From: Desulfomonilia bacterium
Lineage (GTDB): Bacteria > Desulfobacterota > Desulfomonilia > UBA1062
Assembly: GCA_050014195.1 (NCBI GenBank)
Contig: JBEKDT010000006.1
Coordinates: 64,001-128,000 of the forward strand
Direction: 5' to 3'
DNA length: 64,000 bases
Positions 2,194-40,546 of this stretch are shown piece by piece. The notes below the pieces were generated by a model. The model saw nothing but the letters and a program-made list of their open reading frames with translations. It searched no databases and was not told the origin of the DNA. Made by a program: the position numbers and the translations under genes. Numbering within the stretch: position 1 is the first letter of the stretch; each line of letters begins with the position of its first letter.

Positions 2194-2298
2194 AAATCTC
2201 CTGAGGCTGTTCGACGATATCATAAAAAATGAGCGAAACAAACAGAGACCGAACTGCCTCTGAACTCCAGACAATAGTGTTTATGCCTTAGTCACCTG

Positions 2299-3087
2299 TT
2301 ATCCGATTCTCAAACAACGCATGCTCAAGGAGGTGAAAACCTCCTCATAGGTAAAGACAATCTCCTCATCGGGATCACTCAGGGCAAGGCTGTACAAGAG
2401 GGGAACATAATGATCCACCGTGGGAACTGAAAGTGTTGCGGATTTCCCAATTTTTTCGTAATGGATTAGGCTGTCAAAATCCCTTTTGATTATGCTCTCC
2501 TTTACCCGCTCATCAAATTCAATGGCCCAGTCAAAGGGGGCATTGTCACTTCTGGAAAATACCAACCGAAGATTGTGCACGATGTTACCGCTTCCAATGA
2601 TGAGCACACCTTGTTTTCTAAGGGGCTTGAGATTCTGAGCCAGGGCAAAGTGGTAGTGCATGGGCTTATAGTAATCGATGCTTAATTGGAATACCGGGAT
2701 GTCGGCCTTTGGGAAGAGATGTTTCAGTATTGCCCAAGCCCCATGGTCCAAGCCCCATGTATTGTCTGTCTTAACATCAGGGATCAGTGTCTTTACTTCT
2801 TGGGCATATTCCGGTGCGCCGGGGGCAGGATACTTCACATGATACAATTCCTCCGGGAAGCCAGAAAAATCGTATAGTGTATCAGGTTTTGAGGTCGTGC
2901 TGACATAAGAGCCCCCTGTCAACCAGTGGGCTGATACAACAAGGATGGCGCCGGGCTTTTCTGCTAAAGACGTTCCCATGACTGAAAGGCTTTGGGTGAA
3001 AGGGTTAGTTAGGATGGCATTTGTCGGGATGCCGTGGCCGATGAAGAATACGGGCATCCTTGGTTGAGTTAGCGGTATAGCCTTCAT
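2299..3087 (-). CDS. ygiD: LigB-family extradiol dioxygenase (4,5-DOPA dioxygenase, YgiD-like)
   Basis: FIGHG, SAHW, YDFSGFP, GLDHGAW, GSGNIVHNL, PTVDHYVPL motifs. Confidence 0.9.
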   Translation of the reverse strand: MKAIPLTQPRMPVFFIGHGIPTNAILTNPFTQSLSVMGTSLAEKPGAILVVSAHWLTGGSYVSTTSKPDTLYDFSGFPEELYHVKYPAPGAPEYAQEVKTLIPDVKTDNTWGLDHGAWAILKHLFPKADIPVFQLSIDYYKPMHYHFALAQNLKPLRKQGVLIIGSGNIVHNLRLVFSRSDNAPFDWAIEFDERVKESIIKRDFDSLIHYEKIGKSATLSVPTVDHYVPLLYSLALSDPDEEIVFTYEEVFTSLSMRCLRIG

Positions 3088-3112
3088 GCTGATCCTTCTT
3101 TCCCTTCAACAC

Positions 3113-3904
3113 TTAATCCATGCGTTTTATGAATCCCACAAAAGCTTTGTTGAATGCTCCTGATTGTTCTATATTGACAAAATGGGCTGCATGAGGAATG
3201 GCTCTCAATTCCGAAGAAGTTATTCCGCCCCGGATAGATTCAGCAACAGACACAGGGGTACCGAGATCTTGCTCACCAACCAGCACCAGTACGCGCTGCT
3301 TAATAGCACCAAGGCAGTCCCGCAGATCCATATCACGGATCGCCGCGCAGCAGGCGCAATATCCCTCCACAGGCGTATTCAAGATCACCCGGCGTATCTT
3401 TTCGATCTCATTTGGCAGGCGCTTCCGACCTGCCTTGGTGAACCAACGGTCTATGGTGGCATCAACAACCGCTGCCATGCCCTTCTTCCTCACGAGATCG
3501 ATCCGCTCATCCCAGATTTCGCGCGGAGAAATGTGGGCCGCTGTGGAACTGAGTGTCAGCGAGATCAACCTGTCGCCATGCCTGGCGCCCAGCATCTGGC
3601 CGACCATGCCGCCCATGGAAAGGCCGCAGAAGTGGACCTTCTCCAGACCGAGCAGATCCATCAACCCTACGGCGTCGGCTGAGAGCAGTTCCATGGAGTA
3701 CGGACCTGCGGGTACTGCTGAGAGGCCATGGCCCCGGCCGTCATACCGGAGCACCCTGAACCCTCCCTGGATGAGTGCGGGAACCTGGCTGTCCCACATG
3801 GTGATATCGGCGGCAAGGGAGTTGGAGAGCATCACGACTACTCCCTGCTCGGGTCCGTCAACCCGGTAGTTGAGGGTCGTTGCATTCAGGTCGGCTCGGG
3901 GCAT
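3113..3904 (-). CDS. pcaD: 3-oxoadipate enol-lactonase
   Basis: SNSL, RYDGRGHG, GLSMGGM, RWFT, GYCACCAAI motifs typical of PcaD/CatD. Confidence 0.85.
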   Translation of the reverse strand: MPRADLNATTLNYRVDGPEQGVVVMLSNSLAADITMWDSQVPALIQGGFRVLRYDGRGHGLSAVPAGPYSMELLSADAVGLMDLLGLEKVHFCGLSMGGMVGQMLGARHGDRLISLTLSSTAAHISPREIWDERIDLVRKKGMAAVVDATIDRWFTKAGRKRLPNEIEKIRRVILNTPVEGYCACCAAIRDMDLRDCLGAIKQRVLVLVGEQDLGTPVSVAESIRGGITSSELRAIPHAAHFVNIEQSGAFNKAFVGFIKRMD

Positions 3905-10558: not shown

Positions 10559-11758
10559 ATGAAGCGAAGAGACTTTCTGAAAGGGGCTGCAGGGGCATCG
10601 CTCATGGCGGTGTGCCCGGTTACCGGCAGTGTGGGTGCACGCCAGGCCCCCAATAAGGCCGCAAAGCTTTCTCCGGGACGACCAACAAAAGTCTTTCTGG
10701 CAGGAGTGGGCAGAGGGGCTACAGAACAGGCGATTAAACTCTCGGTCCGCCAATCGGCCGAATCAGCCACGGATTTTTCCTGGCTGTCCAGAGGCGACGC
10801 TGTGTTCATCAAGCCGGTGGTCAATTCAGGACACCCCTATCCGGCCACCACCAGCCCCATTGCCGTCGCAGCCATGGTCGAGCTCCTCAAGGAAAAGGGG
10901 GCGGGCCGGGTAATCGTGGGAGACATGTCCGGTGTGGAAAACGTGAGATTCTCATCAACCGGGCTTACCGGCAGCTCCCGGAAATTGATGGAGGCTTGCG
11001 GCATGGCTAAGGCCGTACAGGCATCCGGCGCCGAGATGCATTTCTTCGAAGAAGCGGGATGGAATGCATTCTATGAAGACATCCCGGCTGCGGGCTCTCA
11101 CTGGAAGAATTCTCTAATGATGCCGAACGTCCTCAAGGAGGTTCAGCACATCATCCTCATGCCCCGCTGTTCCCGCCATATAATTGCAGGCAGCACACTT
11201 GGCATGAAGGCCGCGGTAGGTTATTGGCGCCACGACACACGTCTTGAATACCACCGCGACGCTGCCACCCTGCAGGAAAAGACGGCCGAAGGCAATACTG
11301 TGGAAACCCTGCGCACAAAGCAGAGGCTCGTGCTTTCGGCAGCAGACAAGATACTCACCACCTTTGGCCCGGACAAGGGATATGTCTTTACGCCGGAGAC
11401 CGGTATGATAATCGCCTCACAGTCGGTGGCGGCTCATGACATGGTGTCTCTGGCCTGGCTCCTGGACAACAGACGCACCATCCCTGAATCACAAAGGGAT
11501 GATTTCATGGATACCAGCAAACTGGCTCCAAGATTTGCCAATCACATAGTAGTAAGCTGGCTGGGCGGATGGGGACCGGCCCTGGCGTCGGAAACGCTTA
11601 CCAAGAACGATCTCAAAACCATATGGGATGATCGGGTCATCACGCATGCCTGCGAGGTCTTCGGCGGCGTGCCCGGGATTGTCCTGGAACCTGCCAACAA
11701 GGCGCTCCCCGAAGACTTGAAGAAGCGGTTGGGCCAAATGACCGCCTTTCCTGCCTGA
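10559..11758 (+). CDS. DUF362 domain protein with Tat signal peptide
   Basis: KRRDFLK twin-arginine motif; VFIKP, TLGMKAAVG, R..YH. Confidence 0.85.
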   Translation: MKRRDFLKGAAGASLMAVCPVTGSVGARQAPNKAAKLSPGRPTKVFLAGVGRGATEQAIKLSVRQSAESATDFSWLSRGDAVFIKPVVNSGHPYPATTSPIAVAAMVELLKEKGAGRVIVGDMSGVENVRFSSTGLTGSSRKLMEACGMAKAVQASGAEMHFFEEAGWNAFYEDIPAAGSHWKNSLMMPNVLKEVQHIILMPRCSRHIIAGSTLGMKAAVGYWRHDTRLEYHRDAATLQEKTAEGNTVETLRTKQRLVLSAADKILTTFGPDKGYVFTPETGMIIASQSVAAHDMVSLAWLLDNRRTIPESQRDDFMDTSKLAPRFANHIVVSWLGGWGPALASETLTKNDLKTIWDDRVITHACEVFGGVPGIVLEPANKALPEDLKKRLGQMTAFPA

Positions 11759-11943
11759 CCGGGGGATCCCCTAAAGGATGTAAACACTTAAGGGATTTGC
11801 TTCGGGTGTGTTGCATATCTCATTGATCTGCATCCAGGCCTTCGGCCCTTTTTCTCCAAGATAGAGATTGATGTTGAACAGTTGCATTTAATTGTAATAC
11901 ATCTGTTGATACGACATTCTTACAAAACATCATGGGAGGGGAT

Positions 11944-12990
11944 ATGGCTGTCATCAAGAATAAAGTCATGACTGCGCAAGAGGCCGTCAGCAGATTCGTT
12001 CAGGACGGCGATCACCTGGTTATCGGCAACTACACCGTGGGGACCTGTGCCGCCCTCGTATTCGAGGTCATCAGACAGCAGAGAAAGGGCCTGACCCTGT
12101 ATTCCCAGTCAGGGGTCTTTGACGTGGAAGTGCTGGTCGCAGGAGGTTGTGTAGACCGGCTTGTAACTACCTACGTATACCGGGCAGGCGGGAAGGAGGG
12201 CGGGTCTGCCGTGGAGAGGGCGATCAAGGCGGGCACCCTCGAGATGGAGGACTATACGAATTTCCAGTACAACGCCCGCATGGTGGCCGGCATGCACGGG
12301 TTCAGCTTCATGCAGGTCTTGGAGGGCGCCATGGTCACCGACCTGTTCAAAAAGCGCTCATTTATGGGGGAAGAAAAATATAAGGTGATCACCTGCCCGT
12401 ATACGGGCAGGCAGATTCTCACCGTTCCGGCGGCAAACCCCGATGTGTGCATCGTACACGTGCAGCGGGCCGACAAATTCGGGAACGCCCAGTACTGGGG
12501 GGCCCTCGGCAGTGTTGCTTCTGCGTCCCTCGCGAGCAAGAGGATCGTTGTATCGTGCGAGGAGATCGTGGAGCACGATATCATCCAGTCGAGCCCCCAC
12601 CTGACCCTTATCCCCGGATACCGGGTGGATGCGGTGGTCGAGGCCCCCTGGGGCGCTCATCCCACAGAGGTGCTGGGTTACTACAATCTCGACCGGATGA
12701 TGTATGCCATGTTTTTCCTGTCGGATATGACGGGCGACGGCCTGAAGGTATGGATGGACGAATGGGTCTACGGGTGCACTGACCGCCATGCCTACCTGGA
12801 TCATTATATGGCCAAGCACGGTGCGGAGATGCTCGATGCCATCAGGGCCAAATCCTATTTCTCCGCACCCGCGAATTACGGCTCCGCCTATACTTCGTGT
12901 TGGGACAACGACAACCTGGAACGCACCATGGGCATCACGTTGGAAGAAATGGAAAAGATCCTTGAGGATAGGGGGTTGCTCAATGGCTAA
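11944..12990 (+). CDS. family I CoA-transferase subunit A (GctA-like)
   Basis: VQDGDHL, IVHVQRADKFGNA, SCEEIV, PWGAHP. Confidence 0.9.
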   Translation: MAVIKNKVMTAQEAVSRFVQDGDHLVIGNYTVGTCAALVFEVIRQQRKGLTLYSQSGVFDVEVLVAGGCVDRLVTTYVYRAGGKEGGSAVERAIKAGTLEMEDYTNFQYNARMVAGMHGFSFMQVLEGAMVTDLFKKRSFMGEEKYKVITCPYTGRQILTVPAANPDVCIVHVQRADKFGNAQYWGALGSVASASLASKRIVVSCEEIVEHDIIQSSPHLTLIPGYRVDAVVEAPWGAHPTEVLGYYNLDRMMYAMFFLSDMTGDGLKVWMDEWVYGCTDRHAYLDHYMAKHGAEMLDAIRAKSYFSAPANYGSAYTSCWDNDNLERTMGITLEEMEKILEDRGLLNG

Positions 12991-34173: not shown

Positions 34174-35001
34174 TCAGACTGCAACCTTGAGAATACCGTA
34201 GAGCAAACACCCCACGAACATGATGCCATCCATGCGGTCCAGCATCCCACCATGGCCGGGGATGAGGTTCCCCAGATCCTTGATCTGGAATTCCCGCTTG
34301 AACAGAGACGCGGTAAGGTCTCCCGCCAGGTCAAGAACGCCGATGCATGCGGACAGCAGGATCAGGAGCCAGACAGGATAGAAACCCTCCAGGGGATCCA
34401 ACTGATAATAGACGATAACCTTATTATATATAAGAAAGACGGCATAGCCGAGTACGATGCTCGAACATATCCCGCCGATGAAGCCTTCCAGGGTCTTCTT
34501 TGGGCTGAGCCTGGGCGCTATTTTGCGGCTCCCGAGGTTCTTGCCCACATAGTATGCCCCGACATCGGATCCGAAGACACCGACAAGGCCGAAGATCATC
34601 CAGAATCTGCCGTCCATGCCCACCCTTAACAATACCCAGAATCCGATCAATGCCATGGGATAGATCAGACCTGCCAGGGAATAGACAAGATCTTTAGCGC
34701 CTGCCCTGTTCTTCTCAAAGAGGAAGAGTGATGTGATCATGAGGATGACACCCGTGACGCCCACCACAAGAAAGCACCCGGCCATGTCTCCCTTATAGGC
34801 AAAAAGGAGGAACGGGACAGACGCGACAATGGCTACCAATGCCAGTGCTAAGGCGCTGGGGCTGATGGCCACCCGGAACAGCTCATACATGCATATGGGC
34901 ACCACCAGCATGGCGATAAGCAGCAATGCCCAGGCAGGACCGAAGACAGCAGGGATGGCGAAGATAATAATAAGGATAAGCGCCCCCATGATTCGTTTCA
35001 T
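34174..35001 (-). CDS. cdsA: phosphatidate cytidylyltransferase
   Basis: SPKKTLEG, GDL.AS.FKR, PGHGGMLDR; ATGA overlap with uppS. Confidence 0.95.
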   Translation of the reverse strand: MKRIMGALILIIIFAIPAVFGPAWALLLIAMLVVPICMYELFRVAISPSALALALVAIVASVPFLLFAYKGDMAGCFLVVGVTGVILMITSLFLFEKNRAGAKDLVYSLAGLIYPMALIGFWVLLRVGMDGRFWMIFGLVGVFGSDVGAYYVGKNLGSRKIAPRLSPKKTLEGFIGGICSSIVLGYAVFLIYNKVIVYYQLDPLEGFYPVWLLILLSACIGVLDLAGDLTASLFKREFQIKDLGNLIPGHGGMLDRMDGIMFVGCLLYGILKVAV

Positions 35002-35714
35002 ATGAGAGAGCCCCCCACCTGTTCGCCTGTCATGCCGAAGCGCCTCTGTCTGCTCGTAAACCACATGATGGCTTCATCCAGGGCATTCTCATTGAAATCG
35101 GGCCAGAGGATGTCGGTAAAGTAGATCTCGGTATAGGCCAGCTGCCACAGCAAAAAATTGCTCACCCGGCGCTCTCCTCCTGTCCTGATGAGAAGGTCAG
35201 GGTCGGGCATGAATGCGGTGTCCAGGGTGGAGGAAAAAGATTTTTCCGTAATCTCATCAGGGTTGATCCCGCTTGATACAAGCCTTTTCGCAGCCCTTAC
35301 TATTTCATCGCGCCCCCCGTAATTCAGGGCAATGGCCAGGTGCAGGTCGTTGTTGTCTTTTGTCAAGTCAAGGGTCATTTTGATCTTGTCCTGGAGCTTC
35401 TTTGAAAACCGGGACATATCACCGATGATATGGATGCACACCCCGCTCGTCTTGAGTCGCTTTACCTCTTCCTCGATGAAGTGCTCAAGAAGATTAAAAA
35501 GGCCTTCGACCTCTTCCTTGGGCCTGCTCCAGTTCTCAGATGAAAAGGCGTACAGCGTGAGGTATTTGATGGCCCTTGCTTTTGCCGCCTCAACGATCCT
35601 CAAGGTGGCCCTTGCTCCCATTTCATGGCCCTTAAGCCGTGGAAGGCCCTGCCTCTGAGCCCACCTCCCGTTGCCGTCCATGATGATGGCGAGGTGGTTG
35701 ACCTGGTTTTGCAT
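34998..35714 (-). CDS. uppS: undecaprenyl diphosphate synthase
   Basis: IMDGNGRWA, AFSSENW, NYGGRDE, RVSNFLLWQ; start uncertain (35714 or 35732). Confidence 0.96.
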   Translation of the reverse strand: MQNQVNHLAIIMDGNGRWAQRQGLPRLKGHEMGARATLRIVEAAKARAIKYLTLYAFSSENWSRPKEEVEGLFNLLEHFIEEEVKRLKTSGVCIHIIGDMSRFSKKLQDKIKMTLDLTKDNNDLHLAIALNYGGRDEIVRAAKRLVSSGINPDEITEKSFSSTLDTAFMPDPDLLIRTGGERRVSNFLLWQLAYTEIYFTDILWPDFNENALDEAIMWFTSRQRRFGMTGEQVGGSLI

Positions 35715-35774
35715 GAGTGAACTTGTTAACACAGGGGGTATGGGGGGTCAACAATCAGTAGGGAGAGAATTTAT

Positions 35775-35882
35775 GGGTGAACAGTGATCAGTGACCAGTG
35801 AATAGTGCAAAGCGAACCGTGCATAGGTCGCGTTTCAATCGCAGGGTCATTGCGAGGAGCTGAAGGCGACGCGGCAATCTCA
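35775..35882 (+). repeat. left composite arm: CAGTGAN heptamers, GAACCGTGCATAG, GTCATTGCGAGG...GCAATCTCA
   Basis: inverted counterpart at 38599-38764 with the three blocks in mirrored order. Confidence 0.8.
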
Positions 35883-35887
35883 CACTA

Positions 35888-35916
35888 GGGTGGGTGGAGC
35901 GTCAGCGGAACTCACC
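35888..35916 (+). repeat. GGGTGGG REP-like palindrome
   Basis: GGGTGGGTGGAGCGTCAGCGGAACTCACC resembles 13823-13860. Confidence 0.7.
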
Positions 35917-35992
35917 TCTAATATCTCTTCCATTGAATAACCCATCGAATGGGGCTGGAACCAATTCATCATCTTGACAACTGCCAGCCATA

Positions 35993-36052
35993 TATAAACG
36001 ACAAAGCTCACCGGCGCGCGTCAGCGCGTCCGTGTGGATGCCCTTGTTCGCC
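35993..36052 (-). mobile_element. integron attC site
   Basis: GGCGAAC...GTTTATA, 60 bp, imperfect hairpin with unpaired bases, 13 bp after the yoeB stop. Confidence 0.8.
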
Positions 36053-36065
36053 TGATCACATCTGG

Positions 36066-36329
36066 CTATTCGTAGTGTGTCCACATACGGATGACTTTTA
36101 CTGTTTTGATGTCATCAAGTATTTGGTAAATCAACCGGTGTTGGATGTTTATTCTCCTGGAACATGCTCCCGACAGATCTCCAAGAAGCTTCTCAAAAGG
36201 TGGGGGAGTCTGGTATGGATCTTCTTTAAGGATATCTAGCAGGTGCTCTGCCTGATGTTTTAGACCTGAATGTGCGATCTTCTTGGCATCTTTTTTTGCC
36301 TGTTTGGTAAAGACCAATCGCCAAGTCAC
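36066..36329 (-). CDS. yoeB: Txe/YoeB family toxin
   Basis: FEKLLGDLSGACSRRINIQHRLIY...MWTHYE. Confidence 0.93.
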   Translation of the reverse strand: MTWRLVFTKQAKKDAKKIAHSGLKHQAEHLLDILKEDPYQTPPPFEKLLGDLSGACSRRINIQHRLIYQILDDIKTVKVIRMWTHYE

Positions 36330-36568
36330 CAGTCAAGATCCTCATTGCACTCCTCTACAGGAGTCTCAAGTCCCTTCTGAATAGATTCACGCATACCCGG
36401 AATAGAAGTGAGGTACAAAGTTTCCTGGATTGCTCGCCAATCCTCCTCTGAAATTAGCACTGCGGAACTTCTTTTGCCTACAATCTGAACCGGCTCATGG
36501 GATTCTTTCACCTCATCGACAAGGCTATATAATCGTTTTCTTGCTTCTGTTGCTGTAAGTGTAGCCAT
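36326..36568 (-). CDS. yefM: Phd/YefM family antitoxin
   Basis: TATEARKRLYSLVD, AVLISEEDW, ETLYL; 4-bp overlap with the toxin. Confidence 0.93.
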   Translation of the reverse strand: MATLTATEARKRLYSLVDEVKESHEPVQIVGKRSSAVLISEEDWRAIQETLYLTSIPGMRESIQKGLETPVEECNEDLDW

Positions 36569-36583
36569 TATTATGAACCTCCT

Positions 36584-36625
36584 TAGCGTACGATATAGCG
36601 TACGCTACAAAACATCCAGTGTCAA
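36584..36625 (-). promoter_or_regulatory. TA promoter and operator
   Basis: TTGACA-17bp-TACGCT; two CGTACG palindromes 12 bp apart over the -10. Confidence 0.8.
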
Positions 36626-36635
36626 GCTATTTGAA

Positions 36636-36692
36636 GGCGAATGCCTGCGTCAGTGGGAGCCGGCTTTTTCGGCGATCCACCGGAAATTGGGG
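36636..36692 (-). mobile_element. degenerate integron attC site
   Basis: core GGATCGCCGAAAAAGCCGGCTCCCACTGACGC nearly identical to 37184-37246; ends read CCCCAAT / ATTCGCC. Confidence 0.72.
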
Positions 36693-36709
36693 ACGACGGC
36701 AAGCACTAC

Positions 36710-36976
36710 CTACCCCTTCTTACCCAGGATTGCCGCGATTTTCTGCGCAGGCGTGATGCAACTCTGTGGGGTTAAACTGAGATCAAATGCTTGATTGAGA
36801 ACCTCCATCACGAGCAGCTCTGGTTTTACGGAATTGCCCCGTACCTTTAGCCCAAAGATTATGTCGGAGGCCTCAACACGGTAACCATTAAGATCTGCAA
36901 CGTTTCTTGCGCCTTCTCCCAGTGGATTCCACTTGGCAAGAACGTTTGCGACAGCAGTGATTTGTTCTTCGTTCAT
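36710..36976 (-). CDS. hypothetical cassette protein (DUF1871-like)
   Basis: WNPLG...GY..EA.DI pattern; AGAGGA RBS, ATG 36976. Confidence 0.65.
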   Translation of the reverse strand: MNEEQITAVANVLAKWNPLGEGARNVADLNGYRVEASDIIFGLKVRGNSVKPELLVMEVLNQAFDLSLTPQSCITPAQKIAAILGKKG

Positions 36977-37167
36977 TTGTGTCCTCTGTGTTCTGGTCAC
37001 AATCTCGCCCAGAATTCCTGATATGGCATGACATGCTCATGCTTGGTTCGCCAATGTGCATCGATGCCGTCCCATCCGTTGCCTTGAAACACATGACCAC
37101 ACTCTGGACAAATGCGTGGCAAATCCTTATTTTGATTTTTATCGCAGCACGAACAGGATTTATTCAT
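36973..37167 (-). pseudogene. small zinc-finger-like ORF with in-frame TGA (not in ORF track)
   Basis: AGGAGA RBS; MNKSCSCCD...CPECGHVFQGNGWDGIDAHWRTKHEH...ARL*PEHRGHK*; the final stop overlaps the next ATG. Confidence 0.65.
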
Positions 37168-37183
37168 GAGTATCTCCTAGAGC

Positions 37184-37246
37184 CCCCAACACGAGCGTCA
37201 GCGGGAGCCGGATTTATCGGCGATCCGCTGCACGCACTCGTTCGGG
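37184..37246 (-). mobile_element. integron attC site
   Basis: CCCGAAC...GTTGGGG, 63 bp, arms GCGT(G)CAGCGG / CCGCTGACGC, 2 bp after the upstream stop. Confidence 0.85.
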
Positions 37247-37248
37247 AA

Positions 37249-37917
37249 TCATCTTTTCCATACCATCCGTCCAATTGACACAAACTTGTTGACCGTCAAA
37301 GAACCCCGTTCGTTGCGGGCTTTTGATCCAGGACGCCTCAATTCTTTTTCTGTTTCTGGCCTCTTGGCCTCATGAATTTCCCGAACCTGAAAATCATGAC
37401 CAAGTAACGCAAGCAGGACAACATCCCATTCTTTCTCCAGGTTGATACTGCCCAGTCGTTGGCCTGGCTTGGGATTATCCGCCATTGCTCGTGACTTGAT
37501 CTGGATAAACTCTTCGCGACCGTCCACTCTTCGCACGGCATCGTACCCTGATTGCCTCACCGGTGCCCTATCCAATCCGAGCAACCGGCATGTCTCATGT
37601 TCGGCGATCTCGCCGGTAACACCGAGGGGGCGCCCGGTAGTTTCGTAGTATTGTTTTGCAACGATCCTGGCTTCTTCAATCAATTGATTTACGTAGTCGT
37701 TGTTATAGCTTTCATGCTGTTTGTGTGGATAGAGCCACCCCTTGATGATTCCGTCCCGGAAAAGAGCAGAGGCATATTCCTCAGAGCTCAGGTTCGACCT
37801 GTTTTTCCTTCGTTCGACAAGTCCCTTTCTCTCGGCGTCTGAATACGATTTAATGCATGCGGATTCATTGCCGTCGTGCTCAACGAAAAGCTGTTTCATG
37901 AGTTCCCGCTGTTTCAT
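37249..37917 (-). CDS. putative PD-(D/E)XK nuclease (DUF6998-like) with extra N-terminal helical domain
   Basis: GEIAE...GYDA...IQIKSR motif. Confidence 0.7.
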   Translation of the reverse strand: MKQRELMKQLFVEHDGNESACIKSYSDAERKGLVERRKNRSNLSSEEYASALFRDGIIKGWLYPHKQHESYNNDYVNQLIEEARIVAKQYYETTGRPLGVTGEIAEHETCRLLGLDRAPVRQSGYDAVRRVDGREEFIQIKSRAMADNPKPGQRLGSINLEKEWDVVLLALLGHDFQVREIHEAKRPETEKELRRPGSKARNERGSLTVNKFVSIGRMVWKR

Positions 37918-37926
37918 GGTTTACTT

Positions 37927-37995
37927 CCCGAACTATTACTATACCGACACCACGAATATTGATATTTGTGAATTCGGTATAAGTGGCTAATAGAC
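37927..37995 (-). other. array head site (attI-like or degenerate attC)
   Basis: ATACCGA...TCGGTAT hairpin then AGTAATA-GTTCGGG; GTTCGGG complements the CCCGAAC closing this cassette. Confidence 0.55.
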
Positions 37996-38101
37996 ACGGA
38001 ATGTGGAAAAGATGTGGTGGCTAACCCATGACCGTGACAATATCTCCATTTCATAATATTATAGCCTACATGATATGATGGTCTGCCGTAAGATATTTAA
38101 A

Positions 38102-38479
38102 TGGTCTAAAGAGCCAATTGCAAAAATTAAAAAGGTTCATCACAGTAAAGCATACTCGGCTCATTGAAGAGCACACAAAAGGGATATTCCACCACGAAGG
38201 ACACGAAGAGCACGAAGAAGATCTAAAAACCAGAACAAACACTCTTGGATCCATTGAACCGGTCAACGATTTCAAAAGGCTTTCTTTCTTCGTGTCCTTC
38301 GTGGTGAGAACAATGGGCTGGGAAGAGGATGCAAACCACGAAAGTATGCTTCACAGAGAAGAACCATTAAAAAAGAGTCACCTCCGCGAAAGCGGGGGTC
38401 CAGAAGTCCATGAAGAGACTGGATTCGAAGCTTTCGTAGGAATGACATCCAAAGAGTTTTGCAATTACCTCTAAAGACT
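38102..38479. repeat. MITE-like segment with imperfect ~22-bp terminal IRs enclosing two palindromic elements
   Basis: GTCTAAAGAGCCAATTGCAAAA / TTTTGCAATTACCTCTAAAGAC; perfect 19-bp IR 38190-38208 / 38288-38306; GTCA...GGAATGAC element 38377-38446. Confidence 0.6.
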
Positions 38480-38519
38480 AAAATTACTCGGCCGGGTGGA
38501 TGGAATGAAAGAAGGCATT

Positions 38520-38558
38520 GGGTGGCACGGGCCAAGGCTGGAGGCCTTGCCCGTGGGA
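38520..38558 (+). repeat. REP-like palindrome GGGTGGCACGGGC...GCCCGTGGGA
   Basis: matches 20445-20483. Confidence 0.75.
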
Positions 38559-38598
38559 TTTATTTGTGGGTGTCATTGAATGAAACCTTCTCTACAGG

Positions 38599-38764
38599 AT
38601 GAGATTGCCACGTCGCCTTCGGCTCCTCGCAATGACCCCAGAATAATACTAATAATATTCCTCTATGCAACGGTTCTTTCATTATCTGTTCACAGTCACT
38701 ATTAAGTAATCGTTAATCACTATTCACTGTTAACTGATCACTGATCATTGGTCACTAAACACCC
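38599..38764 (-). repeat. right composite arm, inverted relative to 35775-35882
   Basis: 39-bp block with 2 mismatches, GAACCGTTGCATAG, CAGTGAN heptamers. Confidence 0.8.
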
Positions 38765-38887
38765 TGTATCTTCCGCCCCTTTTCAATCATTCTCCCAGCT
38801 CTGAAAAATTTATTTTTTGCCCCTTGACTTTCCCCTAATCATTGAGATACAGACTCTTGGTGCGCAAGCTATGGGTGCGCCCGGAAG

Positions 38888-38963
38888 GCTGGAGTAGCTC
38901 AATCGGTAGAGCAGCTGATTTGTAATCAGCAGGTTGCGGGTTCGAGTCCCATCTCCAGCTCCA
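38888..38963 (+). tRNA. tRNA-Thr(TGT)
   Basis: cloverleaf, loop TTTGTAA, GGTTCGA, CCA. Confidence 0.97.
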
Positions 38964-38974
38964 GAGAGACTTCG

Positions 38975-39059
38975 GGAGGGGTTCCCGAGCGGCCAAAGGG
39001 AACAGACTGTAAATCTGTCGGCGAAGCCTACGGAGGTTCGAATCCTCCCCCCTCCACCA
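38975..39059 (+). tRNA. tRNA-Tyr(GTA)
   Basis: long variable arm, loop CTGTAAA, CCA. Confidence 0.97.
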
Positions 39060-39121
39060 TAAGAATGAGGGATTGCAGGAGACGTGAGTCGTTTATGACT
39101 GCACAATCCTAAGAAAATGAT

Positions 39122-39198
39122 GCGGGAGTAGCTCAGTTGGCTAGAGCGTCAGCCTTCCAAGCTGAGGGTCGCGGGTTCGAATCCCGTTTCCCGCTCCA
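39122..39198 (+). tRNA. tRNA-Gly(TCC)
   Basis: loop CTTCCAA, CCA. Confidence 0.97.
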
Positions 39199-39225
39199 TA
39201 TCCCCTCTAGTTTTTGTGGAGACAT

Positions 39226-39303
39226 GCCCACGTAGCTCAGTAGGTAGAGCACTTCCTTGGTAAGGAAGAGGTTTCCCCGGTTCGATCCCGGGCGTGGGCT
39301 CCA
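39226..39303 (+). tRNA. tRNA-Thr(GGT)
   Basis: loop TTGGTAA, CCA; 7-nt variable region. Confidence 0.95.
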
Positions 39304-39349
39304 CCTGAAAAGGCTTGTGCGGAGAAAAAAATTATAAAGGGGGAAGTAC

Positions 39350-40546
39350 ATGGCTAAGGAGACATTCAAGAGGACGAAGCCGCATGTGAATGTGGGGACG
39401 ATTGGTCATATTGATCATGGGAAGACGACGTTGACGGCGGCGATCACGAAGCATTTGGCGAAGAAGGGCATGGCCGAGTACGTGGCGTATGACCAGATAG
39501 ATAAGGCTCCGGAAGAGAAGGAGCGAGGGATCACGATCAACACGGCGCATGTGGAGTATGAGACGGAGAAGAGGCACTATGCGCACATCGATTGTCCTGG
39601 ACATGCGGACTACATCAAGAACATGATAACGGGAGCGGCGCAGATGGACGGGGCGATATTGGTGGTGGCGGCCTCTGACGGTCCGATGCCGCAGACGCGT
39701 GAGCACATTTTGTTGGCGAAGCAGGTGAATGTGCCGGCGATGGTGGTATTCATGAACAAGGTGGACCAGGTGGACGATCCGGAGTTATTGGAGCTGGTGG
39801 AGCTGGAGCTTCGGGAGCTTTTGAGTGCGTATGATTTTCCTGGGGACGAGATACCGATCATACGGGGGAGCGCGTTGAAGGCTCTTGAGACGGATGATTC
39901 GGATGGTGCGGATGCGAAGTGCATATTTGAGTTGATGGATGCGGTGGACAGCTACATACCCGAGCCGGTCAGGGACATAGACAAGCCGTTTTTGATGCCT
40001 GTAGAGGACATATTTACGATCAGCGGGCGCGGTACGGTGGTGACGGGCCGAGTAGAGCGCGGGATCATCAAGGTAGGGGACGAGGTGGAGATAATAGGGA
40101 TACGACCCACGATCAAGACGGTGTGCACGGGCGTTGAGATGTTCCGGAAGACGCTGGATGAGGGTCGTGCCGGGGACAATGTAGGGGTGCTGATCCGTGG
40201 GACGAAGCGTGAGGAGGTGGAGAGGGGGCAGGTAGTGGCGAAGCCCGGATCGATCAATCCGCACGTGCATTTCAGCTCTGAGGTATATGTATTAAAGAAG
40301 GAAGAGGGTGGTCGTCACACGCCGTTTTTCACGGGGTACCGGCCGCAGTTTTATTTTCGGACGACGGACGTGACGGGGGACATCAAGTTGCCCGAGGGGG
40401 TGGAGATGGTGATGCCCGGGGACAACGTGACGATGGAAGTGACGCTGATAGCGCCTATAGCGATGGAAGAGGGGTTGAGGTTTGCCATTCGAGAGGGCGG
40501 CAGGACCGTGGCATCCGGCGTCATCGTCAAGGTCATCCCGGACTAA
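39350..40546 (+). CDS. tuf: elongation factor Tu (copy 1)
   Basis: [21 protein letters not shown]. Confidence 0.99.

Follow-up and report, generated by a model that had tools for sequence, protein, structure and literature searches.

A probable integron platform without its integrase: a putative attI site and three gene cassettes between uppS and tRNA-Thr in a Desulfomonilia genome

We analysed a 64,000-nucleotide stretch of a Desulfomonilia bacterium (GenBank assembly GCA_050014195.1, contig JBEKDT010000006.1), referred to here as the window, with positions counted from its first letter. The genome holding it, G000, is a metagenome bin of 29 contigs with the window on contig C6; its relatives are numbered G002, G003 and so on. 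The interval between uppS (34998-35732), which is the end of a conserved block, and tRNA-Thr(tgt), which starts at 38888, very probably represents an integron platform minus its integrase, made up of an attI entry site and three cassettes, with all of the island genes on the minus strand. Lacking a neighbouring intI, the cluster of attC sites is a CALIN (cluster of attC sites lacking an integron integrase) in the sense of Cury et al. (2016), as an earlier note made from the sequence had proposed. It is an ordinary example of that known class, distinguished by retaining a recognisable attI. Judged as a complete integron, the window is without an intI bearing the IntI-specific extra domain, and attI is present by homology and position. 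The earlier note mentioned neither the attI ahead of cassette 1 nor the decay of one attC site.

Two covariance models of attC recur below. R1 was built from six sites, namely sites a and b of the window plus the core matches in G002 and G015, and R3 was built from 38 attC matches on other contigs of G000 (18 regions), with zero window sequence. When R3 was run over the whole 64-kb window with filters off, it returned three minus-strand matches, which we call attC_a, attC_b and attC_c (Table 1). The opposite strand of attC_a also scores (E 0.00014) and is the sole other match below E 2; the next best has an E-value of 2.4. From right to left, the open reading frames (ORFs) are a 222-aa ORF, a 56-aa ORF, an 88-aa ORF, yefM and yoeB, and a hairpin follows the 222-aa ORF, the pair of small ORFs and yoeB. 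The earlier note had placed three attC-like hairpins at these positions, each behind a minus-strand gene, and both the R3 matches and the ORF positions bear this out. The three sites have the same orientation and are spaced 548 and 643 nt apart.

The sites belong to a family that is found beside genuine integrase genes. A 32-nt core is common to attC_a and attC_b (91% identity) and recurs with 1 mismatch in G002:C5, on a contig with a complete integron (intI at 459.6 bits against a cut-off of 265), and with 3 mismatches in G015, on a 2.2-kb contig with three such sites in tandem. R1 brought out many more sites, all on the cassette strand, in the complete integrons that G002, G007, G008 and G012 carry, where they lie downstream of intI. 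In the six-sequence alignment, compensatory changes were seen in 6 of the 14 pairs of the central stem.

The three sites are not equally well preserved. Folded as DNA, attC_a (-18.6 kcal/mol) has extrahelical C and CA bulges on the '' arm, that is, the 3' arm of the bottom strand, and attC_c (-14.9 kcal/mol) has wobble pairs and a partly degenerate L' arm. For attC_b, the minimum-energy DNA fold has no attC-like shape; about 6 nt of the L'' arm are missing, seen as a 6-position deletion in the R3 alignment, and as aligned the L'' box is lost. The bottom-strand geometry of an attC site is thus found in attC_a with its bulges and attC_c with its wobble pairs and is lacking in attC_b with its shortened arm. 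The same division applies to the earlier statement that the cores keep GTT/AAC: the R''/R' pair (..AAC / GTT..) is present in attC_a and attC_c, and the claim fails for attC_b, where the ends are the variant AAT/ATT, still able to pair with each other.

The order of cores along the array provides a second line of evidence. On the top (minus) strand the interval reads ...GTATAGTAATAG|TTCGGG, cassette 1, CCCGAAC..G|TTGGGG, cassette 2, CCCCAAT..A|TTCGCC, cassette 3, GGCGAAC..G|TTTATA. In all three cassettes, the opening hexamer and the first hexamer of the cassette's own R'' are reverse complements (TTCGGG/CCCGAA, TTGGGG/CCCCAA and TTCGCC/GGCGAA). All 12 variable core positions match, for which the chance by base composition is ~6e-8, and the self-matching ends described earlier for this DNA are upheld. 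Across the window, other G000 arrays and the congeners, naive core extraction gave a match at 4/4 variable positions in 31 of 56 consecutive site pairs, and a further 10 of 20 pairs in G007, G003 and G008 match equally; several of the mismatching pairs are register slips of the naive extraction or missed sites. Self-matching cassette ends of this kind are the trace that integrase-mediated crossovers between attI and attC leave at G|TT. The departure of the cores from GTTRRRY, which had also been pointed out, is real; cores of the form GTTCGGN and GTTCGCC are common in the genus, so the departure at position 4 is a habit of the lineage and does not set this array apart.

At the head of the array, sequence comparison with the intI-adjacent sites of congeners identifies a putative attI. 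Its top-strand (minus) sequence is TATACCGA ... TCGGTATAGTAATAG|TTCGGG; the crossover falls behind the G at 37933, and the inverted boxes occupy + 37974-37981 and + 37940-37947. This pair of boxes, ending GTATAGTAATNG|TT, also stands ahead of the first cassette in the complete integrons G007:C12 and G012:C51, and in three complete integrons (G007, G008, G012) the distance from the attI motif to the start of intI is 170-190 nt. A second type of site, type A, has two direct repeats followed by GCAAAAGTGCAGTATAGTWATTG|TT and takes the intI-adjacent position in G008:C11. The TTCGGG of the window attI complements the R'' of the first attC, attC_a, and in 10 of 12 attI-to-first-attC pairs complementarity to the first R'' extends over all four variable bases behind G|TT. 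The spacer between the two boxes is ~20 nt longer in the window than in other copies, and this expanded form was found in 1 of the 52 family genomes searched, namely G000.

Further upstream, the 16-mer ATGTAGGCTATAATAT (top strand) sits at the same distance from the crossover as its exact match in the intI-attI spacer of G012 (local alignment score of 32, vs a maximum of 23 in 300 shuffles). Nothing else in the upstream spacer of the window is significantly similar, and alignments with the spacers of G007, G008 and G000:C9 gave no significant result; only the G012 16-mer stands out.

The attI1 site of class 1 integrons consists simply of two inverted boxes for integrase binding, with direct repeats upstream. 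The window site likewise has two inverted boxes and a G|TT crossover in the right-hand box, and type-A copies have two upstream direct repeats. In contrast, there is no sequence similarity to attI1, and the spacer of the putative window site is ~20 nt longer.

Comparison with relatives indicates that the island was added to this interval. The gap between uppS and tRNA-Thr is 133-430 bp in the 7 relatives with both anchors on the fetched locus, and only the ends of the gap are conserved; the G000 island is therefore an insertion. The sister species G003 (uppS 95% identical) has a gap of 8.4 kb, and homology between the two genomes ends at 35874 and restarts at 38734. The G003 gap contains a type-A attI and two other cassettes with self-matching cores (positions 2282-3849 of locus L013, G003:C15:107000-117700), whose 247-aa and 212-aa ORFs matched nothing in Pfam, followed by a TetR, acyl-CoA dehydrogenase and thiolase operon. 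A comparison of this interval among relatives had been proposed along with the CALIN reading, and the gene content does differ.

For the integrase, we took a TIGR02249 score of 265 bits as the cut-off and searched 31 genomes, that is, G000 and 30 relatives, of which 14 are congeners. An intI above the cut-off was found in 9 of the 31, with 8 of the 9 among the 14 congeners and none in G000. The 21 TIGR02249 matches in G000, none of them on C6 and the best at 82.7 bits, pass over the IntI-specific region, which is the pattern expected of Xer-type recombinases. Searching the window by tblastn with congeneric IntI gave nothing (best E 0.11), in agreement with the earlier observation that no tyrosine recombinase is visible there. 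The only trace of intI in the genome is a stump at G000:C10:179413-179553 (L062 3414-3554), ~47 codons long and broken by two in-frame stops. Over its final ~21 residues it is almost identical to the C-terminus of congeneric IntI, and at the point where it is cut off it adjoins an attC on the other strand. It can therefore be deduced that the G000 lineage once had an integrase, and the stump speaks for loss. The earlier note had left it that the integrase acts in trans or was lost; the stump favours loss, and cassette turnover at orphan attI loci, described below, favours trans action in the past.

Two side observations on intI in relatives were made. A partial intI of 357 bits lies at a contig end in a member of another genus (G018:C61:2-730), ~13 kb from uppS on the cdsA side. 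On G002:C5, an ORF with tyrosine-recombinase-like motifs (...HTLRHCFATHLLESG...) is found between intI and the cassette array (L021 ~11640-12475, minus strand); it is probably an inserted mobile element interrupting the attI region.

Could the hairpins be ordinary terminators, or palindromes of the repetitive extragenic palindrome (REP) type, with core matches arising by chance? The interval is full of small palindromic repeats, which would suit such an origin. However, the R3 E-values of attC_a and attC_c and the perfect core match are hard to reconcile with it, the sites are homologous to attC inside intI-bearing integrons, and a terminator scan called no terminator at the hairpins; taken together, these results effectively refute the explanation, to which we attach practically no credence. 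An Rfam scan of 35500-39400 returned four tRNAs and two sub-threshold small RNA matches only, leaving the hairpins uncovered. A different origin would have IntI inserting the cassettes not at attI and instead at a secondary chromosomal site, attG, as in Loot et al. (2023, 10.1101/2022.09.11.507474). The interval is a hypervariable intergenic region beside a tRNA cluster, and CALINs can arise in that way according to Cury et al. (2016). The pre-cassette sequence is not arbitrary, however, and contains the same two-box motif as the complete integrons of G007 and G012, which makes insertion at attG very improbable.

Several points weigh against reading the interval as an integron platform that has lost its integrase. 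The models have a shared lineage (R1, R2, A4, R3) whose seed included window sites a and b, such that R3, though it holds no window sequence, is not independent of the family; independent support beyond R3 is provided by the family adjoining true intI genes and by the matching of the cores. The R3 score of attC_b is weak. A sigma-70 consensus scan near attI found no minus-strand site resembling the cassette promoter Pc (5 promoter-like sites vs 3.8 expected, zero of them on the minus strand). In metagenome contigs from four peat or wetland runs (X21-X24) there are no joints at cassette boundaries, contigs being blind to rare excision. Finally, the bin is in 29 contigs and arrays and intI often break assemblies, so an intI of G000 may be unassembled or unbinned. 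In three relatives (G003, G004, G018) intI does lie at a contig end, and an unassembled copy in G000 is therefore possible.

Two routes could have led to an attI-headed array with no integrase beside it. In the first, an intI of this locus was deleted beside attI, at the place now taken by a repeat resembling a miniature inverted-repeat transposable element (MITE). In the second, an IntI encoded at another locus supplied the cassettes in trans and was later lost by the lineage. We consider the odds between the two to be about even. Without an integrase, the array would now be static and decaying. The loss of L'' in attC_b, its AAT/ATT cores and the expanded spacer of attI suggest that the array is therefore probably frozen. 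The change in attC_b would fuse cassettes 2 and 3, and the distal yefM-yoeB cassette would stabilise the array as an addiction module.

The genus offers material for judging the role of trans action. In G000, the type-A attI motif has 11 matches (0 in a reversed control), and there are two type-B sites, the window attI with its expanded spacer and a normal one at C9:44027. The attI-like sites outside the window lie on C1, C2, C3, C5, C9, C11, C15, C20, C28 and C29, and at least seven head arrays with a matching first core. Beyond the window, 32 of 150 scored attC candidates in this genome have E-values of 1 or below, and these include a C1 array with at least 16 sites. Congeners have 1-7 type-A sites each (for example, G003 7, G002 6, G004 5, G007 3, G008 2 and G011 2), most of them not near intI. 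In G007, which has one intI (C12:115401-116339), three type-A sites elsewhere head arrays of 7, 1 and 5 attC matches, with attC on the attI strand and matching cores.

Two pairs of orthologous orphan attI loci (G003:C39/G000:C15 and G003:C7/G000:C20) are of particular use here. Their flanks are 93-96% identical over at least 7 kb upstream and contain no IntI-like coding, and their cassette parts share only one 55-nt match. Conserved flanks with unrelated cassettes indicate that turnover took place at an intI-less attI after the split of G000 and G003, which argues that IntI acted in trans.

From these loci a wider picture can be drawn. The integron of this genus could well be distributed, with many attI sites, each having its own promoter-proximal module and array, mostly far from intI and served in trans by one or few IntI; we hold this to be nearly as probable as not. 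It is supported by other loci and is not shown for the window array. If it is true, the window array would be one satellite among many, such CALINs would be working cassette-capture sites and not debris, and G000 would be a lineage caught just after integrase loss. The phrases "multiple attI" and "orphan attI" do not occur in the papers listed by full-text literature searches, and the idea may still have been published.

Applied to the window, this means that the array may never have had a local intI and was instead one of many dispersed attI served in trans by an IntI that was since lost from G000 or left unassembled. The numbers of type-A and type-B sites, the three remote arrays of G007 with its one intI, and the cassette turnover at the two orthologous loci all speak for it. 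Against it, the 16-mer stands in register with the intI-adjacent spacer of G012 and the MITE-like repeat begins at the expected start of intI, and deletion in situ would fit equally; moreover, G003 has a different attI type in the same interval, and this provides no orthology argument at the window locus. On balance we regard such a satellite origin as a serious contender that is somewhat more doubtful than not. The reading of the interval as attI and three cassettes with the integrase missing is the one followed in the comparisons below.

In Cury et al. (2016, PMC4889954), a CALIN is a cassette array without a neighbouring integron integrase; 83% of CALINs have fewer than 6 sites, half lie in genomes without IntI, and attI outside the known classes was not searched for. 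The window array is similarly small, lies in a genome without IntI and has cassettes mostly of unknown function. It differs from the CALINs described there in having a recognisable attI, and the genome has an intI remnant elsewhere, not beside the array. The attI is recognisable because congeners have complete integrons. A second comparison is the sedentary chromosomal integron of Vibrio cholerae (Richard et al. 2024, PMC13108822). Like it, the window array is chromosomal, has partly homogeneous attC sites (the 32-nt core of a and b), and includes a type II toxin-antitoxin cassette with an apparent promoter of its own; unlike it, the array has three cassettes, no integrase and one decayed attC, at a locus that is not conserved across the genus. 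With attG insertions and single attC sites lacking an integrase (SALINs), as in the preprint of Loot et al. (2023), the window cassettes have in common an intergenic location outside a complete integron, whereas the window entry point is an attI homologue and there are three cassettes, not one.

Taken alone, the locus is a textbook CALIN that adds three cassettes: a DUF6998 nuclease-like gene, a pair of small ORFs and YefM-YoeB. Its value is the context, a genus with recognisable attI, complete integrons, and intI-less attI arrays at orthologous loci that contain different cassettes. G000 itself has about a dozen arrays and only a stump of intI, and intI-less docking sites are unusually numerous in the genus. 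The origin of CALINs was raised as an open question by Cury et al. (PMC4889954), and the genus makes both the trans feeding of intI-less arrays and their decay after integrase loss testable. Added here are the 11 type-A attI-like copies in G000, their presence in congeners, and the two orthologous orphan attI comparisons.

Table 1. Features of the interval between uppS and tRNA-Thr (window positions; R3 values are from the covariance model free of window sequence)
Feature	Position	Strand	Remarks
Putative attI entry site	37927-37990	minus	homology and position relative to intI-adjacent attI of congeners
16-mer upstream of attI	38056-38071	minus	holds a TATAAT hexamer; exact match to the G012:C51 intI-attI spacer
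attC_a	37184-37250	minus	R3 49.9 bits, E 4.5e-10; R'' CCCGAAC 37240-37246; R' GTTGGGG 37184-37190
attC_b (apparently decayed)	36636-36696	minus	R3 18.5 bits, E 0.034; R'' CCCCAAT 36686-36692; R' ATTCGCC 36636-36642
attC_c (terminal site)	35993-36056	minus	R3 36.5 bits, E 1e-6; R'' GGCGAAC 36046-36052; R' GTTTATA 35993-35999
Cassette 1, 743 nt	37190-37932	minus	ORF 37249-37917, 222 aa; DUF6998 domain plus ~70-aa N-terminal domain
Cassette 2, 548 nt	36642-37189	minus	two ORFs
56-aa zinc-finger-like ORF	36997-37167	minus	ESM atlas C2H2-like clusters 0.95; Pfam/NCBIfam matches weak
88-aa DUF1871-like ORF (weak lead)	36710-36976	minus	ATG behind AGAGGA ribosome-binding site; Pfam E 0.12; ESM atlas DUF1871 clusters 0.91
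Cassette 3, 643 nt	35999-36641	minus	yefM and yoeB
yefM	36326-36568	minus	PF02604, 63.5 bits
yoeB	36066-36329	minus	PF06769; TIGR02116 95.2 bits vs cut-off 51.8
MITE-like hairpin repeat, 375 nt	38104-38478		22-nt terminal and nested inner inverted repeats; 113 BLAST high-scoring segment pairs genome-wide
39-nt palindromic repeat pair	35844-35882 and 38600-38638		arms 95% complementary; brackets the island

The product of cassette 1 has 1666 homologues at E-values of 0.001 or below. The best of these are mostly ~150-165 aa long with 52-60% identity and carry PF22522, for which the cassette-1 protein itself scores below the cut-off (15.3 vs 27). In an alignment of 26 family sequences, E103, E106, D126 and Q139-x-K141 are invariant or nearly so. 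An AlphaFold model (mean predicted local distance difference test, pLDDT, 81.5) has its best Foldseek matches in the PDB with NhoI (8q5n, E 4.6e-6), the N-domain of Eco15I, and PvuII, at a probability of 1.0 and a template-modelling (TM) score to the target of 0.58. Given these fold matches and the conserved (E/Q)xK-type residues, a PD-(D/E)xK restriction-endonuclease-like nuclease is the best reading and one that the predicted structure supports, as it does the name "nuclease" given to the gene earlier; such a nuclease could possibly be a defence enzyme. A search of genome contigs with the protein recovered two partial relatives, in metagenome-assembled genomes of Solirubrobacterales and Opitutales. 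The model R2 found no attC near either, and there is therefore no sign of cassette 1 in another array.

The N-terminal domain of the cassette-1 protein (~60 aa; residues 1-70, window 37708-37917) aligns by eye with a C-terminal extension of the homologues P0002-P0004, in the pattern ...Y..AE..G.V.R.....L..E.YA..L..DG..KGW. By this alignment, the extra domain would be located at opposite ends in different members of the DUF6998 family.

Cassette 2 had been described as a zinc finger plus a DUF1871-like gene. The 56-aa ORF does resemble a zinc finger of the C2H2 type; DUF1871 similarity of the 88-aa ORF is a weak lead.

Cassette 3 is confirmed by profile matches as a YefM-YoeB type II toxin-antitoxin system, in keeping with the name first given to it. 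The two ORFs overlap by 4 nt, with the Phd/YefM antitoxin preceding the Txe/YoeB toxin. Upstream of yefM, a TTGACA hexamer (36621-36626) is followed by two AGCGTACG repeats; both were read by eye, and the consensus scan did not flag either. The cassette thus appears to carry its own promoter and operator. Toxin-antitoxin cassettes with their own promoters are typical of chromosomal integrons and penalise excision, according to Richard et al. (2024).

The array is also seen in environmental data. In 24 peat/wetland runs from 23 studies, at least 89% of the words sampled from 35700-38900 are present, and 16 of the 24 are marked as possible sources of this DNA. In four peat/wetland runs, examined as contigs only, the array is colinear, and pieces span attC_c, attC_b, attC_a, attI and the border of the MITE-like repeat with 0-1 differences. 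The only joints in the X21-X24 contigs lie inside the MITE-like repeat, at 38217-38369.

The MITE-like repeat starts where intI would begin (~38100), and its depth in the metagenome contigs is 100-280, vs ~5-9 for the array. The string GACCAT at 38101-38106 was considered as a remnant of the intI start codon and dropped, the GAC belonging to the terminal repeat of this element.

More copies of the 39-nt palindrome occur on C6, C5 and C17, and in run X21 the right-hand copy has a depth of 862 vs ~8. The repeat is not specific to the island, since it is a very abundant short palindrome. We considered whether the two copies might be the ends of a mobilisation unit, and whether the bracketing repeats might help attI modules move. 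One other copy lies ~110 nt upstream of the attI-like site G000:C5:182663. A second inverted-repeat pair, at 35778-35807 and 38718-38747, also brackets the island. A small repeat at 35888-35925 (GGGTGGGTGGAGCGTCAGCGGAACTCACC) has look-alikes in the same interval of G002 and G003, and the interval from uppS to tRNA-Thr gathers short palindromic elements.

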